Shown here: positions 24,021 through 32,663 of the stretch, in pieces
How positions within the stretch are numbered: the first letter of the stretch is position 1
Layout: the number at the start of each line of letters is the position of its first letter
DNA from: Ostreococcus lucimarinus
Lineage: Eukaryota
Assembly: GCA_000092065.1 (NCBI GenBank)
Contig: CP000584.1
DNA length: 64,000 bases
Strand: one strand, 5' to 3'
The notes under the pieces: generated by a model
What the model was told of the DNA's origin: nothing
The model's input: the letters and a program-made list of their open reading frames with translations, nothing else
Database searches by the model: none
Translations under genes and position numbers: made by a program

Positions 24021-27000
24021 CTAGGCGAAGGGGGACGACGCGGCGACGCGCGGACGCGGGGAACCGTCGGCGCGGGCGTCGGACGGTTTGAGCGACGACG
24101 CTTCGAGGCGCTCGATTTTCGATGCCGCGGATTTTAAACCGTCGAGCGCGGCGACGAGGGCGGATTCGTCGGCGTTGGCGGGGGACGACGTCAAGTCGTC
24201 GCACGACAACGCGTCGCACTGGTCTCGAAGACTGGCGGTGACGTCGAAACCGAGCGCGGCTTGGTCGACGGCGCGCGGGAAGACCGCGAGGAAGTCACAC
24301 GCGGCGCGCGCGGCTCGATAGAGGGCCACGGCGACGGCTTCGGAGTACGCATTGCCAGTCTTTCGCGTCGAGGCGTCGGCGATGGGCGAGCCGTGCGGCG
24401 CCGTACCGATGAGCGGCGACGTGGGTTCGCGCACGGAGTCACCTCTCGCGGTGGCTTGGAACCATGCCTGAGTGGCACGCGTCGCCGGTGGTTTTGCCGC
24501 CAACGTTTCATCGGCTCGCGTCTTTCGAGGACATCGCAAGCCCCCGACAACCTGAGGCGCGGCGAACCATCGAAGAAAGCTCACGCACGCCACGCGACAG
24601 CGCATCTGGCCTTCGGGCGAAGAAACTTGCCACTGCGCACCGAAAGTGGACGCGAGACGGCTGAAGAACAACGCCGTCACTTCGACTTCCTTGAGCGTCG
24701 CGAGTGTGATCTCTTTTGGCGCCAAAGCGGCGAGCATTCGAGCTTCCAACGCCGCGCAAAAGCGAACGAGATCAGCCCCGACGTCTACAGAGTGCACGGC
24801 GAGCGGCGATCCCGCGAGCATGGCGGTGACGCGCAGAGCGGAGCAATATATATCGTGATTTGTCGTGTTGTGACGTTCGGCCTTGTTTGACTCGACGCAC
24901 AAGATGGCGAGAAGACGGACGGTGTCCGACGCGAGTAAAATCTCCGCTCCTTGATCGCTCTTGGAAAGGCTCAGGCACGTGTTTAGAGCGGCGATGGTCA
25001 CACTGTCGACGTCGTCGTCGCCTGTCGCCGGCCGGAGCGCCGGCATTATCTTGTAGGTACTGAGCACTTGAAGCAGCGCCGACGTCGGAAGCAGGTCGCT
25101 GGCGATGTCTGCGAGCAACATGAGCGCCACGCTCGATGTCGTCGAAGCCTTAGCGTTATTCGTTCCAGAGTCCCCTGCAGCAGCTTGGCAAATGAGAGGT
25201 ATGAGAGGCAACGCGGACTGGCCAAGCTCATAACTCGGCTGCACTGTCTTAGCAGATTGCATTCCGGCGCGCCACGCTCGGATGGCGAACAGCATGGCGG
25301 TGAGCAATGGGTTCACGAGAGACGCCGCTTCTCGCGATGGCGATCCCGAAGCGCTTGTTCGAGGAGCCAAAACCGTCGACACAACCAATATCACGCGCTG
25401 CACCGGTTCGAAATCGTTCTCCGCTGGTGTCTGAGGTGACGCACTGGATACTGAAACGCTCCACAACTGTGTCACGACGGACAACAACGTGGCCATTTCA
25501 TTCGCCAACGGGCTGACGTAGGAAGGCATGCTCGCTGAATCCGTCACGATGATCTTCTGCAAACGCTCAGCGACGTTCAATACGAGATCTCTTCGACTAT
25601 CTCTCGAAAGCCCATCGAGGAGAGTTTTCGGCGCACCTGTCGTCGTTGAGGCAGGTTGCGTGAACACCCCGGCGTGCATCTTCGGCAACTCACCAAAGGC
25701 GGCAGCGGCGATGAAGGAGCTCAACGAACAGATAGCGGACGACTGCGCGTCTGTGATCGACGACAGTAGGCACGTCTCGGCGAGCTGAGCGCTCATCGCA
25801 CGCCCCATGTCTGCTAGGGCTCCTTCGGGTGCGCCCCACTGATCGTCCGCGTTCGAACCCACACATCCCGTAGCGACGCGAATCCAATAGGAGTCGTACA
25901 AATACGATTCACCGTACTCAGCAGTACCAGCGACGCTGAGAGGAGCCGGAGCGAACGCCACGGCCTCGACGTGCATATCGCGGGCCGCCTGCACGAGTCT
26001 ATGCACCGCATCGGCTGACATAATAGAGCTCGGGCTTTGTGTAGCCGCCTCTCGAGCGACGGCTTCTAGAATTGCGACATTCGACGCCCCAGACGCTCTC
26101 AAATCTTTCGCCGACGCGTGCGAGAGCAAAGCGTCTCTGATTTTTCCACACATCCACTGTAATGTCGCGTCTGCCATCAACGGCGAGCGCTTCGCACTCA
26201 TATCTTCGCGCTCAAGAACCGATATGCATTGCAGAACGAACGCTTGCGCGGCGAATTGCGTCTTTTGGCGCGACAAAGCGCAACTCTCGTGCGAGAGACA
26301 CGTATCAATCCATGAACTGATGCGTGAGTTCGCGCACCATTCTCGTACCTGCGCGTTAAACGTCGCGCTCGACGTCCCGTCGAGAGCATTCATAGACGAC
26401 TCCGCTTCGATGGCGAATAGCGAAAGCACAGAACTAGCCGCGCTCAAGCTATGCGCCACCGCCGGTGGAGTAACTTCCTTCTCCGGTTGATCCACGCACG
26501 TCGCCAGTCTTTTCCACAACTCGACGTCCTTGACCTTGAGTGTCTGAATAGACTCGATGAGAAGTGGCTGGCGGCGCCAGAGAGCATCGAGCATGCGCAA
26601 AAGTGCCGCCAGGCAACGGGGCGACTGCGAGCGTATCTTTGTGGTGTCCTCGAGGATGTCCCACACTAAAGCCAACGCTCCTTCAACAGTCTTTTTCGTC
26701 TTTGTCGGGAGCGGCGGCGTCGGTGGTGGTTGCGTCGTAGGCGTCGTAGGTGCGAGAGCATTTGTCGGCGTCGTAGGTGCGGCAAGTGCGCCGGAAGCAG
26801 TCGGAGCTGGTAATGAAGCGGGGCGCTCTTCTTCGGGCTCTTTTTCGGGCACGAGTAAGGTGGCGACCCATTCCGGCTGATTTGCGATACCTGCGCTGAG
26901 TAAATCTGCGATGTCACACACGGCGTCCAAATCAGCGTGCTTGAACATGTGCTGCATCGAGCTCAGAATCTCCGCTCGATCTTGTCTGTCTAGCGTTGCA

Positions 27001-29786
27001 GCCATGGGAACGGCGTTCGCCGCCGCGCACAAAGGCACGAGGGCCGGAAGTGCGAGTGGAAAACACGCCGCAGCGTACGGATATCCGGCATATGACGCGA
27101 TCGAGCTCGCAAAGGGAGCACCATTATTACTAGTTTCGATGAGCAGCATTCGCTCGAGTACACCACCGAAATTATCACCTGCGTGATAAACGATGAGTGG
27201 TATAGACCTGAGCACCGTCGCAATTGCTTCTTCGAGAGCCGTAACTTCCTCTGTTCGAGGCGCACCGCCTTCTTCATGCAACTTGCGTAGAGACGCTGCA
27301 TCGTACACGAGTGGTGCAAACGATCCAAAGCAAATCGCCTTGTCGTTGATCAAGTAGGACAGCACCTTGTCACGAAGTCTAATGGCAAAATCGCCGTGTC
27401 GGGGAGTGAAAATTTGATAGATGATGCGCTGCACCGCCGCGTGAACGATCCATTTTTCAGCTTTGTGCCTGTACCGCCACTGCACGTGACGGACAGCAAT
27501 TTCTTGCAGGACATGATCTACGAGGGCCTCGAGCTTATCGCCAAGCCCACCATGTTGGAGTAATGTCTCCACTAAACTAAGCACGGCCAACGTCAACGGA
27601 TATTCACCGAGGCGCGACTCGCTGTCGCGAATGGCGCGAATCAACCCGGGGACACCAGTGCCTGGAGTGCCCGACAGGAGCGGCGCCTCGAGTACCTCTG
27701 CAACGGTTCTAGTGGGCTCAGCCGCGGCGAGTGCAGATAATGCCTGTAACACGGTGGCGGTCGATTGAATGCTTTGCTCCGTATGAAGAGACTTGCTTCG
27801 CACGTGCAACGCCAACGAAAGACCTGTGAGGATGTCGGTCGGTGACCCTTTCGGCACGGACTCAGAAACGTCACATGATAACATTGGTCTCGCAAATGAT
27901 GGTGCGTGCGTCAAAACTTTGGACAAGAATAACGTCGTCGCGTCGAGTTCATCACTCTCGCTCGTCGTCAATTCTCTGCTCAACCCCGCACTCGCGAGCA
28001 GGGAAAGGCGAGTCAGACAAAGATGCAAGCCGTCAGCAGGTGCGGCCCAGACGATCAACGGTGTGGTTTGTGTGCCCATATCAATTGCCAAACCGGACAT
28101 GCCAGCTTCGATGAATCCGCCGGGAATGTAAGGACTTGTAAGCCGATGGATGGCGGTGACCGAACCGCTCGCGAAGCCCGACTCGACGTCCATCACAGCG
28201 TCCTCGCTTGGTTTCAAGCCTTGCTGCATGATGTCTGGAGAAGGCACCGGTAGAGCAACCGTCGGCAGTTGTGCGATGTATGCCAACGCGCACTCCGCCG
28301 CGCGATGGCCCTCGGAAAACGCCGCGAGTACTCTCAACAGTGGGGCGGAATCGTAAGGAAACCGCTCTCGACAGCCTTCCAAGAGCGCGAAGAGCGGAGC
28401 CTCTTGGCCGTCCTCTCTCGCACCACCCCAGAACTGCTCGCATAGCACTGGCTGATGTGCGAGAAGTTTTCGTAGAACGCTCAAAATCTGGTTCAGGTCG
28501 TGAGTGGGCAAGCGGTGAACGGGAAGCATGTCGTACGCGGCGAGAATGGTGGAGAACATATTCTTCAGCACGCTCTTGTGGAGCGTCACGGTGGCGTCTT
28601 CGCCTCGCAACTGTTCCGCATCGAGCAAGTGCGACAGCGCAGAGAGCCCGCATTCGTTCGCTTTCTGCGTCATGATTTCGATCGAAAATCCGCCCGGCAT
28701 GTACTCAGCATCCACCGGTAGCAACGTGAGAAACGTTGACCACGCGAGCAGCGTTGGTCCGTGCGCCGCGTCGCTCTGCCATTTTTCCATCATTTCAGTG
28801 ATGGACTTTAGCACAGTCGCTTCCAAAAAACCGTGCGCATTCAGGCTCTTCCCGGAAAATCGATCGACTAAGTTTTCTAAATCCATCGCCGCGATCAGGG
28901 TGACGTTGCACAGCGCGCGAATATCCTCCGTGAACGCGTTCACGTGCGCCTGGGGCGCGTGCGACTCGAGCTCAATCGCCGCCGCGGGCGCGCGCCTGAG
29001 CGCACCCTTCTCAAACATTCGAGCCAACTTCATGAACATTTCAGGTTTGCACTTCACGCGGTTGTAGTACAGCAAAAATAGAACCTCCAGCAGCGCCACC
29101 GTCTCTTCGAGCGTTTGCCCCGCCCACGCCGCGGCGTCCTCCGGACTCGCCCCCTCGGGCCCGCTCGCGCTCGCCCCGCTCATGTGCCGATCGAGCGCGC
29201 GCCACACGTTCTCCTCGAACCCAAGATCGAGCATCTTCGTCACCGCGCGCTCCCACGCGTCGCCATCCGCGCCGCTCGACGCGTCCCCGCTCGTTCTCGA
29301 GAGCAGCGCGTGCGCGCACTTGATGGTCCCGAGTCGCTCCCGAAAGTAAAACCGCATCACCTCTCGCACCACCTCCTCCGTCGCCTCGCTCGGTCGCGGC
29401 ATTTCGCTCTCATCCAGCGCGCGTCTGAGCAGGACGTACGTCTGCGTCTCGTCCAACCGCAATCGTCTCGCGCACTCCGTCGCCACCTTCGCCGTCGTCG
29501 CGCTCACCCTCAGCGTCTTCCCCCCGTACTCCACGCTCCCGCCGCGCAGCGCCTCCGCGCTCGCCGCGCGCGTCGGTCCGTACGTTTCGCACGCGCGCGC
29601 GACGTGTTCGAGCGCGTCCTCGAGCGTCGACGTCGTCGCGTCGTCGACGACGTCGCCGCGCTGAACGGTCTCATCCAGGGCGTAAAACAGCGCGCGCGCG
29701 TTCGGCAGCGTCGCCGTCGCCGTCGCCGTCGACGTCGGCGCGAGCGGCGCGGCGGCGAGCGCGCTCGGCGCCGGCGCGCTCGGCGC

Positions 29787-29818
<32 letters not shown>

Positions 29819-29837
29819 CGCCGAACGCGAACGACAT
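24021..29837 (-). CDS. Very large (~1938 aa) predicted alpha-solenoid protein of unassigned family. The N-terminus begins MSFAFGAPAPAPAP. A scaffold-nucleoporin-like (Nup188/Nup205-type) protein is possible.
   Basis: This is a continuous 5.8-kb ORF with non-repetitive, helix-rich composition throughout. I recognise no catalytic motifs. The first Met matching a sensible start is at 29837; the ORF upstream of it is Arg-rich and junk-like. Confidence 0.45.
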
Positions 29838-29945
29838 GTCGTTCGACGCGCGCGTCGAAGTGCCGCACTCGCGCGCGCGCGTCGGATCGCCGACGCGCGA
29901 ATTCGCGCGCCGATCGTCGAGCGCGCGCGTCCGCGCGACGTCGCG

Positions 29946-31076
29946 ATGCGGTGCGGGGAGACGACGGCGCGCGAAGCGACGTCGAGGGCTGGCGACGGCG
30001 CCGCCGGGACGCGCGGTGACGAAGACGGATTCGTGCGCGACGCGGGCGTCGGATGTCACATCGCGCTGGACGTCGCGCGCGCGAATCACTCGTCGTGGTT
30101 GCTCGGCGCGGAAGTCGTGGACCCGGACGAGTACTCGGACGACGCGGAGTTCCCGGACGTGGCGTTGGACGCGGATGGACGCGGGGACGCGCCGAGACTG
30201 AGCGCGACGAACGCGGACGGATCAGACGCGGTGAAGGTGGCGTACATCACGGTGTACGACGTGAAGTGTTATGGGAAAGGGAATAAATCGCTCGCGCAGG
30301 GCGTGACGATCGATAACGATGGACGACGGTCGACGGTGACGACGTTCGTGTGCCTGGTGCCGCCGCGCTCGATGGCGCACCTGTGCTTTTTGCGACTGGA
30401 GGGAAGGGACGTGCGGGACGTGCGAATCGACAGCGATTTTCGCGCGTGGTCGATGCATCCGAAACCTAATGACACGCACAGCCAATCGGTGGGGTTTCCT
30501 CTGCGAGGCGAGCGATTTTTGTGCACGCAGAATGAAGGGGGCGAATTGACGCACTTTTTCAGCGGGAATTTGCACGCGGTGGATTTCAGATGTCCCGAAG
30601 GCACGCCCGTGCTCGCGGTGGGCGATGGTGAAGTAATCGAAGTGTGCGACGAGAACACGCTCACTGGAATCGCGGTGTCGAATCTATTCAAATGGAATTC
30701 AATCGTGTTAAAGCTCGACGCTCGCTCGACGCCGGAGACGCCGCTGAGAAACGCGAGCGCTGAGTGCGCCACCACGACTGAGGCCGACGTCTCCACGTAC
30801 GACGTCAGAGGTGGTGATTTATTTGTCGAGTACGTGCATATTCGCGCCAAGAGCGCCAAGGTTAAGGTCGGCGACCGCGTGCAGCGTGGACAAGTCATAT
30901 GCGAGTCCGGCTCCGTGGGATTCAGCCCCGAGCCGCATTTGCACTTTACGGCGTTTCGCTCGGGCGACGACACCGCCGACACCGTGCGCGTCTTGTTCGA
31001 AGCGTGCGACACCGGTGCGACATATCTCCCGCGCGCGGGTTCGTATTACACCGATAGCGTAGGTAAGTGCGCGTAG
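29946..31076 (+). CDS. Peptidase M23 (LytM/lysostaphin-type) domain protein.
   Basis: GNLHAVDFRCPEGTPVLAVGDGEVIEV, followed ~100 aa later by GSVGFSPEPHLHFTAF, matches the M23 HxxxD...HxH metal-site layout (compare GGNHYGVDF...TGPHLHFQ). The first motif is one residue shorter than canonical. The 5' part of the listed ORF (29115..29945) overlaps the large gene on the other strand and is not coding. Confidence 0.55.
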   Translation: MRCGETTAREATSRAGDGAAGTRGDEDGFVRDAGVGCHIALDVARANHSSWLLGAEVVDPDEYSDDAEFPDVALDADGRGDAPRLSATNADGSDAVKVAYITVYDVKCYGKGNKSLAQGVTIDNDGRRSTVTTFVCLVPPRSMAHLCFLRLEGRDVRDVRIDSDFRAWSMHPKPNDTHSQSVGFPLRGERFLCTQNEGGELTHFFSGNLHAVDFRCPEGTPVLAVGDGEVIEVCDENTLTGIAVSNLFKWNSIVLKLDARSTPETPLRNASAECATTTEADVSTYDVRGGDLFVEYVHIRAKSAKVKVGDRVQRGQVICESGSVGFSPEPHLHFTAFRSGDDTADTVRVLFEACDTGATYLPRAGSYYTDSVGKCA

Positions 31077-31181
31077 GTAAGTGCGCGTAGTCCGCTGTAC
31101 ATTTTCATTCACTTTTTCATCGCCGCAACCGACGCTCGAACCGCGCGCGCGACGTCCCACACCGCGACGCGCGCGCCGACG

Positions 31182-32663
31182 ATGGGCAAGACGCAGAAGC
31201 GCGCGCGAAAGAAATCGTCGCAAGCGCCCGGCGTGCGCGACGGCAGCGCGATCGCGAAGCCGACGCACGCGACGGCGGACGCGACGACTGATGTTCAAGT
31301 CGCGGTGGCGGCGGCGGCGATGGCGGTGGACGACGCGCGCGACGACGGCGCGCGATCGAGAGACGTGAGCGAAGGGACTATTTTACGTGCCCTGCTCGCG
31401 CAGTCGTGCGTGGACGCGTGCAAGGCGCTGGATGCGGCTCTGGCGCGCGGCGTCGCGGTGCGGGCGGATACGTGCGCGAGAGTGCTGGCGTTGTGTCAGG
31501 CGCGAGAGAAGGCGAAACCGGCGCTGCGATTGCTGCAAAGAATGGAAGCGAACGGTATGGCGCCGTCGCGAGAGGCGATGCGGTGCGCGTTCTTCGCGTG
31601 CGCGAAGCGGGGAATGTTGCGCGAGGCGCTGGTGTTGATGTCGCGGCTCGACGGCGAAGGAAAGCGTTTCTTAGGGAAGGATGTCCTCGTGCGAGCGTGC
31701 GCGATGTGCCCAGGGGGCGTCGATGGGGATTTAGGTTTAGCATTATTGGAAAGCGCGCTGCGCGGTATCATGTGCGGGTCTTGGGAGCCGGGATCTACCG
31801 CGACGATTCGCGCGCAAATGCCGTTCGCGGTGCCGCGCACGAAGGACGACGACGACATTCCCGCGCCATTGGTGCGTCGCGATATTGAATACGCGCCGGG
31901 TAGCTTTAAAATGGTTTGCGATAACGATGGACGACGTCGGCCGGTGGATAGGTTGCCGCTTGAGCTGTACGCGCCCGCGCACCCGGGCGTAATCCCATTT
32001 GCGCCTTCAGGATTGACAGAGGCGGCGCGTTACGACGTGCCGCACGTTCCGGGGGCGTTCGTCGTGACGAATCTTCTCACGAAAAGCGAATGCTCAGCAA
32101 TCATAGCCGCCGGTCACGCGATTGGGCTTCGTACCGATCCCGGCGACGTCGACGGTGTCACGGGCGCGTCTCGTTTGCAATACTGCGAGTTCATGGTTTG
32201 GCCGCAAAATATTCAAGGTCTGTGGCGACGAATCGCAGACTTAATGCCTCCCGGTGCTGTGGGTATTAACGCGCGCTGGAGGTTCTTCCGTTACGGTCCT
32301 GGTACGATTTACCGCCGTCACGTGGATGGGTCCTGGCCCGAGGGCGCACTCAACGAGGAATGCGAATATGTCACCGACGTCTCCGATGGCAAAGTCCGCT
32401 CGAGGTTGACTTTTCTGATTTATCTCACCGAAGGCTTCAACGGTGGATCGACGACGTTTTACACCGCTACGCCGAGCGAGCCTGGAGTCTTGAGCGCGCG
32501 AGGTGTCGTGCCACAACTTGGCGCCGCGCTCTGCTTCCCGCACGGCGAAGCCGAGGAGTCGCCCGTGCACGAAGGCAGCGCCGTGACCGCGAGCTTGAAC
32601 GGAGGCGAAACGTTCAAGTACGTCATTCGCACAGATGTGCTGTTCAATGTGTCGGATATCTAG
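31182..32663 (+). CDS. 2OG-Fe(II) oxygenase (prolyl 4-hydroxylase-like) protein with an N-terminal helical-repeat (PPR/TPR-like) region.
   Basis: C-terminal YRRHVDGSW...SRLTFLIYLTEGFNGGSTTFY...ESPVHEGSAV gives the HxD...H iron triad in a P4Hc-like context. The N-terminal half has PPR-like helical pairs (ALRLLQRMEANGMAPSREAMRCAFFACAKRGMLREALVLM). Confidence 0.55.
   Translation: MGKTQKRARKKSSQAPGVRDGSAIAKPTHATADATTDVQVAVAAAAMAVDDARDDGARSRDVSEGTILRALLAQSCVDACKALDAALARGVAVRADTCARVLALCQAREKAKPALRLLQRMEANGMAPSREAMRCAFFACAKRGMLREALVLMSRLDGEGKRFLGKDVLVRACAMCPGGVDGDLGLALLESALRGIMCGSWEPGSTATIRAQMPFAVPRTKDDDDIPAPLVRRDIEYAPGSFKMVCDNDGRRRPVDRLPLELYAPAHPGVIPFAPSGLTEAARYDVPHVPGAFVVTNLLTKSECSAIIAAGHAIGLRTDPGDVDGVTGASRLQYCEFMVWPQNIQGLWRRIADLMPPGAVGINARWRFFRYGPGTIYRRHVDGSWPEGALNEECEYVTDVSDGKVRSRLTFLIYLTEGFNGGSTTFYTATPSEPGVLSARGVVPQLGAALCFPHGEAEESPVHEGSAVTASLNGGETFKYVIRTDVLFNVSDI

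Follow-up and report, generated by a model that had tools for sequence, protein, structure and literature searches.

A predicted intracellular M23-fold peptidase of Ostreococcus lucimarinus belongs to an apparently eukaryote-specific two-domain protein family

Background

Why does the nuclear genome of Ostreococcus lucimarinus encode a protein with the fold of bacterial cell-wall hydrolases? The gene in question lies at positions 29,946 to 31,076 of a 64,000-nucleotide stretch of contig CP000584.1 (assembly GCA_000092065.1), hereafter called the window. An earlier note, made from the sequence of the window, described its product as a homologue of M23 (LytM/lysostaphin-type) peptidases encoded by an integrated algal gene, and offered two explanations for its presence: murein remodelling at the plastid envelope or during plastid division, or horizontal acquisition. 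The homology and the integration of the gene stand; a plastid-murein role and a recent acquisition from bacteria are not supported. The protein has the M23 fold and its motifs, retains the catalytic constellation and carries an additional N-terminal immunoglobulin-like (Ig-like) domain. This two-domain architecture extends over a whole family, and no classical targeting peptide was recognised in the window protein. We favour, with moderate confidence, the reading that this constrained nuclear gene encodes a member of a discrete eukaryote-specific family combining an Ig-like and an M23 domain, and that the protein is an intracellular zinc endopeptidase acting on a substrate other than peptidoglycan.

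An M23-type domain with a nearly invariant predicted active site

The window protein matches the Pfam family Peptidase_M23 (PF01551) at 54.8 bits (cut-off 28.7, E = 1.1e-14), which bears out the proposed homology, and it has the LytM-type beta-sheet core fold of this family. A variable loop of 35 residues within the domain divides the match into two stretches. The closest solved structures by sequence are those of lysostaphin and LytM (E = 2.7e-8 with the protein as single query, 6e-15 with the profile of the family).

In LytM and lysostaphin, the zinc ion is bound by the His and Asp of an HxxxD motif and by the second His of an HxH motif; catalysis depends on the first His of HxH and on a third His located between the two motifs. 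Both motifs quoted in the earlier note are present, GNLHAVDF at residues 207-214 and PEPHLHFTAF, with its HLH, at residues 328-337, and the first is indeed one residue short: in the alignment with GMHYGVDF of lysostaphin the Asp positions coincide and the His is one residue closer, resulting in HxxD. The second motif provides H331 at the position of the catalytic His and H333 at that of the third zinc ligand. The extra catalytic His between the motifs is found as H298, which we take to be the counterpart of LytM H260 and lysostaphin H328.

Residue conservation was counted over 304 near-full-length members of the family. D213, H298 and H333 are present in all 304, as are H203 and Q195, which precede the first motif; H331 and C193 each occur in 303. 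H210, the His of HxxD, is found in 269 members, with Tyr at this position in 17, Phe in 13 and Asp in two, and the invariant upstream H203 may replace it as a metal ligand. Because four of the five canonical metal-binding and catalytic positions are essentially invariant, the opposite of what is seen in degenerate LytM proteins, the predicted active site appears to be under selection. With three of these residues invariant and H331 missing from a single member, the window protein is probably an active intracellular zinc peptidase.

A constrained nuclear gene

The open reading frame (ORF) comprises 376 codons without interruption. An identical gene was called on an 80-kb metagenomic contig of the Joint Genome Institute (JGI), Ga0228649_1000008, where it is flanked by a divergently transcribed gene of 1938 codons on one side and a 2-oxoglutarate (2OG)-Fe(II) oxygenase gene on the other, with a Dof zinc-finger gene nearby. 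The wider flanks on this contig are eukaryotic (the Dof factor and an RRM/HAT protein). The O. tauri orthologue is 71% identical and syntenic, and the GC content of the gene equals that of its surroundings. The ratio of non-synonymous to synonymous substitution rates (dN/dS, Nei-Gojobori method) among three Mamiellales orthologues is 0.21-0.24, at a dS of 1.3-1.8 that is near saturation; this indicates purifying selection. The locus is a real, integrated and selectively constrained algal nuclear gene and not a contaminant, in agreement with the earlier note.

A family present in several eukaryotic supergroups

An exhaustive HMMER profile search over 1.84 billion representatives set apart a discrete family: 288 clusters (50% identity) reach E <= 1e-30, compared with 26,886 generic M23 matches at E <= 1e-3. 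Among the best 150 matches listed, most span profile positions ~30 to 355. Homologues align over ~91% of the window protein and not over the M23 domain only, and full-length relatives are 45-99% identical. End to end, the window protein is 45-75% identical to diatom and Mamiellales members and 35-43% identical to the rest. It shows the features by which the family is recognised, namely the N-terminal sandwich, LCTQ..LTH, HxxD and GF[SC]PxPHLH, over the full length.

Six diatoms carry the gene, and diatom members that are 45-55% identical end to end come from Cylindrotheca, Nitzschia, Pseudo-nitzschia, Synedropsis and a metagenome-assembled genome of the Bacillariaceae. More distant members with source names belong to brown algae (Ectocarpus, Discosporangium), a pelagophyte (Chrysophaeum), a raphidophyte (Chattonella), a chromerid (Chromera velia), dinoflagellates (Polarella, Durusdinium), a colpodellid (Colpodella angusta), Rhizaria (Paulinella micropora), Amoebozoa (Arcella intermedia) and choanoflagellates (Salpingoeca helianthica and S. 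punica). The two Salpingoeca species and Arcella have the two-domain protein and no plastid. A further entry, from MMETSP0959, is labelled 'Aurant...' and has in its header taxid 87120, which is that of the fungus Rhizopogon, Aurantiochytrium limacinum being 87102; despite the mismatched taxid it is probably from Aurantiochytrium, a thraustochytrid, which would make it a further carrier without a plastid.

Every source-named member is eukaryotic, with zero bacterial names among the named matches. Pattern searches combined with tblastn gave no confirmed relative in the genomes of 185,579 bacterial and archaeal species, each represented once, and no confirmed locus with the family motifs in the viral genomes of IMG/VR. 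The family genes of Polarella, Chrysophaeum and Cylindrotheca contain introns, and genes of the family lie among eukaryotic genes. As far as the data reach, the family is apparently eukaryote-specific and not tied to photosynthesis. It is conserved across several eukaryotic supergroups and abundant in marine phytoplankton.

In the searchable literature we found no account of the family or of its architecture, distribution and HxxD site. Already public are the M23 domain call, the UniProt name 'M23ase beta-sheet core domain-containing protein' and the JGI label 'MepM/NlpD' on some members. Automatic names on family members are unreliable and include 'murein DD-endopeptidase MepM/NlpD', 'biotin carboxyl carrier protein' and 'prolyl 4-hydroxylase 4'.

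N-terminal regions and domain fusions

The N-termini of 203 members were surveyed with a script anchored on the conserved GC[HY]I. A polybasic presequence occurs in 159 of them and a Met-Gly start in 86; a hydrophobic 12-mer scoring above 2.0 on the Kyte-Doolittle scale is found at the N-terminus of only three, and in all three an MGK/MGR start follows closely. In the window protein, the first conserved residue comes after about 24-25 disordered residues of net acidic charge, compared with seven residues in P0010, an orthologue from a metagenomic contig. Mamiellales tails generally comprise 7-25 acidic residues and are conserved neither in length nor in sequence; diatoms have a polybasic MGK/MGR tail instead. 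By script and inspection, no transit or signal peptide was recognised in the window protein and almost none across ~200 relatives. Diatom plastid proteins require a signal peptide for the endoplasmic reticulum.

Hydrophobic N-terminal extensions are present in a few metagenomic members (P0161, P0105, P0106 and P0159), upstream of the conserved MGK/MGR start. The extension of P0161 terminates in ASAFAP, a diatom plastid-signal motif, a single case in 203. As plastid or hydrophobic signals these extensions were rejected, since they precede the MGK/MGR start and are probably over-extended ORF calls; an alternative start with dual targeting is possible in members of this type.

Two members, P0261 and P0313, are fused to a BTHB domain, the double-stranded RNA-binding module of nuclear FKBP25 (PMC5714180). 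Other fusions are sporadic, with one member each for a ribonucleoprotein (RNP)-type zinc finger, a P-loop kinase and a 2OG oxygenase, and P0279 has a CCCH-like finger at its N-terminus. Together, N-termini and fusions hint indirectly that members of the family reside in the cytosol or nucleus; the hint is weakest for the Ostreococcus protein.

Domain structure

The AlphaFold2 model of the window protein, built on 115 homologues, is confident, with a mean predicted local distance difference test (pLDDT) score of 88.2 and a predicted template modelling (pTM) score of 0.86. Its parts are listed in Table 1. Since pTM is high for the model as a whole, the beta-sandwich seems to pack rigidly on the catalytic domain. 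In latent LytM, an Asn residue occludes the zinc; by analogy, one may speculate that the nearly invariant Asn89 of the N-terminal domain contacts the active site.

The 163-residue protein P0121, from an ENA contig of 267 kb, corresponds to just the N-terminal domain, with 68% identity; it stems either from a gene split in annotation or from a sandwich domain that exists on its own. It was the one match among 319 candidates scored in a word-indexed search with the N-terminal domain alone, a search that is uninformative on the distribution of the domain.

Table 1. Features of the M23 gene and its product in the window
Feature	Residues	Position	Strand	Remarks
Intergenic spacer, 108 bp		29838..29945	.	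between the M23 gene and the divergent 1938-codon gene (24021-29837, -)
Coding sequence, single exon, complete	1-376	29946..31076	+	376 residues plus stop; member of the apparently eukaryote-specific Ig-like + M23 family
N-terminal tail	1-24	29946..30017	+	disordered (pLDDT <50), net acidic, not conserved, unlike a transit or signal peptide
N-terminal Ig-like beta-sandwich	~28-185	30027..30500	+	family-specific; motifs AGxGC[HY]I, PDVAxD, LSxxN, TTFIVLxPP, SDV..W..HP.P.D.H
Asn89	89	30210..30212	+	in the N-terminal domain; Asn in 303/304 near-full-length members, invariant in 115 sequences
M23/LytM catalytic-type domain	~186-376	30501..31073	+	
Signature LCTQxxGGxLTH	192-203	30519..30554	+	includes C193, Q195 and H203
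First metal motif H210-A-V-D213	210-213	30573..30584	+	HxxD instead of the canonical HxxxD; aligned to lysostaphin
Insertion loop in M23 domain	~256-290	30711..30815	+	variable in length and sequence; pLDDT 57-60
His298 in EYVHI	298	30837..30839	+	aligned to the His of lysostaphin YMHL
HxH motif H331-L-H333 in GFSPEPHLHF	331-333	30936..30944	+	aligned to lysostaphin PHLHF

Possible function and alternative explanations

Members of the family consist of a variable N-terminal tail, an Ig-like beta-sandwich of ~150 residues and an M23/LytM metallopeptidase domain. In the function that we propose, D213 and H333 would bind the metal together with a first His, either H210 or the invariant H203, and H298 and H331 would activate water. 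The enzyme would be a catalytically active zinc endopeptidase working inside the cell, in the cytosol or nucleus. The sandwich, packed rigidly on the catalytic domain, could recognise the substrate, or regulate or gate the active site. The substrate would not be peptidoglycan; if lysostaphin-type enzymes are taken as a guide, the likeliest target would be a peptide segment that is rich in glycine or flexible for some other reason. In other lineages, the polybasic tails and the fusions to double-stranded RNA-binding and zinc-finger domains hint at a nuclear or RNP setting. A broader version of this proposal, which we put forward only tentatively, is that of an ancient pan-eukaryotic intracellular zinc peptidase in which the fold of a bacterial wall hydrolase gained a new Ig-like domain and a re-wired HxxD site (with H203 as a possible ligand), and which was turned to an endogenous substrate, such as glycine-rich or disordered segments of nuclear or RNP proteins, and moved between green algae and diatoms.

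Several points weigh against an active intracellular peptidase of a purely eukaryotic family. The window protein departs from the HxxxD of the M23 family, and the replacement of H210 in 35 of the 304 members means that metal binding may differ from that of canonical M23 enzymes or may be lost in some members. The two scans of prokaryotic genomes were pattern-based, with only three short signature peptide motifs, and source names accompany only ~1/4 of the database proteins, so that an unnamed bacterial member is conceivable. The assessment of targeting peptides comes from inspection and from a simple script for hydrophobicity and charge rather than from a trained predictor. The nuclear/RNP hint is not directly applicable to the Ostreococcus protein, in which both the polybasic tail and any fused domain are missing. 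Biochemical or localisation data on any family member are absent from the searchable literature.

The best characterised relatives, LytM and lysostaphin, are glycyl-glycine endopeptidases of Staphylococcus (MEROPS M23B). The window protein differs from them not only in its first motif but also in lacking a signal peptide and an SH3b or other wall-binding domain, in its 35-residue insertion within the catalytic domain and in its family-specific N-terminal domain; it is a eukaryotic and probably intracellular protein, and its host offers it no murein to cut. One could instead regard it as a non-catalytic M23-fold module with a binding or regulatory role, like EnvC, NlpD, SpoIIQ or vertebrate LECT2, which seems unlikely. 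The first three, amidase activators or scaffolds, are degenerate LytM proteins that have lost their metal-binding and catalytic residues, whereas the family discussed here keeps them essentially invariant across several supergroups, as expected of a working site. LECT2 (leukocyte cell-derived chemotaxin 2) is a small secreted cytokine, restricted to animals, with no peptidase activity and no Ig-like N-terminal domain, and the window protein is only 14% identical to it over the aligned residues. A bacteriolytic murein hydrolase, directed against prey, symbionts or phycosphere bacteria and reaching the outside or phagosomes by a non-classical route, is a little harder still to credit. M23 enzymes are typically bacteriolytic, and many carriers are phagotrophic or live close to bacteria (choanoflagellates, Arcella, dinoflagellates, Paulinella); however, the script detected no signal peptide among ~200 members, no Pfam scan revealed a LysM, SH3b or PG_binding domain, the non-phagotrophic Ostreococcus and diatoms also carry the family, and polybasic N-termini and RNA-binding fusions are unlike those of a secreted lysin. 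A tubulin deglycylase, which would direct Gly-Gly peptidase activity at polyglycine side chains, was also considered and was rejected on distribution, since the gene is carried by Ostreococcus and pennate diatoms, which to our knowledge have no cilia.

The role in plastid murein remodelling suggested by the earlier note would have the protein imported into the space of the chloroplast envelope and cutting residual peptidoglycan at plastid division, as does DipM, a murein hydrolase with LysM and LytM domains that acts in cyanobacterial division and in chloroplast division in Cyanophora and Physcomitrella (PMC4015805). The M23 fold with its catalytic residues would suit this role, as would the upstream extension of P0161 with its diatom-like motif, and some prasinophytes (Micromonas pusilla, CCMP2099) have kept a full peptidoglycan pathway (PMC4815162). 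In the three sequenced Ostreococcus genomes and Bathycoccus, however, only DDL and MURE of this pathway are still present, and Ostreococcus is without MurA-D/F, MraY, MurG and PBP (van Baren et al. 2016, PMC4815162), so that the expected co-occurrence with the pathway is not observed. DipM, reported absent from green algae (PMC4015805), has N-terminal LysM repeats where the window protein has an Ig-like sandwich; its plastid-targeting sequence, its cyanobacterial origin and its tracking of the peptidoglycan pathway likewise have no recognised counterpart here. The window protein has no Pfam match to LysM at E <= 1, scores far below the cut-offs of the NCBIfam DipM models (18.1 bits against 900 for NF050804 and 13.5 bits against 740 for NF041208) and is also far below those of the MepM, ShyA and EnvC models. 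The P0161 extension, being a single case ahead of an MGR start, probably reflects gene calling. Because plastid-free organisms carry the family, no targeting peptide was recognised, likeness to LysM proteins or DipM is lacking and the pathway is reduced, a murein role is very unlikely, and the target of the Ostreococcus protein is probably not a chloroplast wall. The remaining alternative, a gene recently taken up from bacteria or a contig of contaminating bacterial DNA, could appeal to the overwhelmingly bacterial distribution of the M23 domain and to the 'MepM/NlpD' label on some family members. It is effectively refuted by the eukaryotic neighbours on the 80-kb contig, synteny with O. tauri, the matching GC content, the lack of any bacterial, archaeal or viral locus with the family motifs in our scans, and the eukaryotic identity of all named relatives, several of them with introns.

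An M23 match in a prasinophyte genome is thus no evidence for plastid peptidoglycan, and pipeline labels such as 'murein DD-endopeptidase MepM/NlpD' on eukaryotic metagenome proteins are misleading. The family defined here, previously uncharacterised, combines a near-invariant active site with a non-canonical first metal motif. If the intracellular peptidase that we favour is real, a 'cell-wall' peptidase fold has been put to intracellular use. Since O. tauri and several diatoms are genetically tractable, the function of the family is directly testable.

Relationship between diatom and Mamiellales members

In a tree built by neighbour joining (22 named sequences, 307 columns, Kimura distances, 200 bootstraps), six diatoms fall together with three Mamiellales in a single clade that has 100% bootstrap support and leaves all other stramenopiles outside; deeper nodes are not resolved. 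The Nitzschia protein is 54-55% identical to the two Ostreococcus proteins and 51% identical to the metagenomic Mamiellales orthologue P0010, compared with 33-39% for brown algae, Chrysophaeum, Chattonella and the probable thraustochytrid. Two histories would fit these relationships: the gene passed between diatoms and a prasinophyte-like green alga, or an old paralogue survived in these two groups alone. The clade offers a clean single-gene case for the debate on green-algal genes in diatoms.

Gene model and neighbouring genes

The spacer upstream of the M23 gene presumably contains a bidirectional promoter region. Its 108 bp are too short to accommodate a further exon in frame ahead of the ORF, and the ATG upstream at 29836 does not share the reading frame of the M23 gene. 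The 90% cluster of the window protein includes O. lucimarinus XP_001417265.1, a RefSeq protein of 207 residues that begins at the internal Met170 (window 30453-31076) and misses the whole N-terminal beta-sandwich. XP_001417265.1 is a truncated model, judged by its relatives: all homologues back the 376-residue ORF.

A 14-bp unit, GTAGGTAAGTGCGC, is present in 2.3 tandem copies at 31059-31090 and spans the M23 stop codon. It includes GGTAAGT, which resembles a 5' splice site; no intron is indicated there, because the C-terminus ..VGKCA matches ..VGECS of O. tauri.

The gene located 105 bp downstream on the same strand (31182-32663, +) encodes a 493-residue 2OG-Fe(II) oxygenase (PF13640, 28.6 bits). 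The adjacency of M23 and oxygenase genes is found in three Mamiellales loci (the window, L002 7189-8682 and L005 10343-11725), among them those of O. tauri and of a third contig, and a Durusdinium trenchii gene model of 980 residues, P0305, fuses a 2OG-FeII_Oxy_3 domain to a family member. A functional link between the two proteins was rejected, as the Ostreococcus and Durusdinium oxygenases share only 25% identity (E = 6e-6) and seven other lineages are without the adjacency.

The divergent gene on the other side (24021-29837, -) encodes a protein of 1938 residues with no Pfam match on record. Its position is kept in O. tauri (1911 residues) and in the third Mamiellales contig (1975 residues), and the window copy has an (AP)n stretch at its N-terminus, encoded by a GCGGGC repeat at ~29795-29825.

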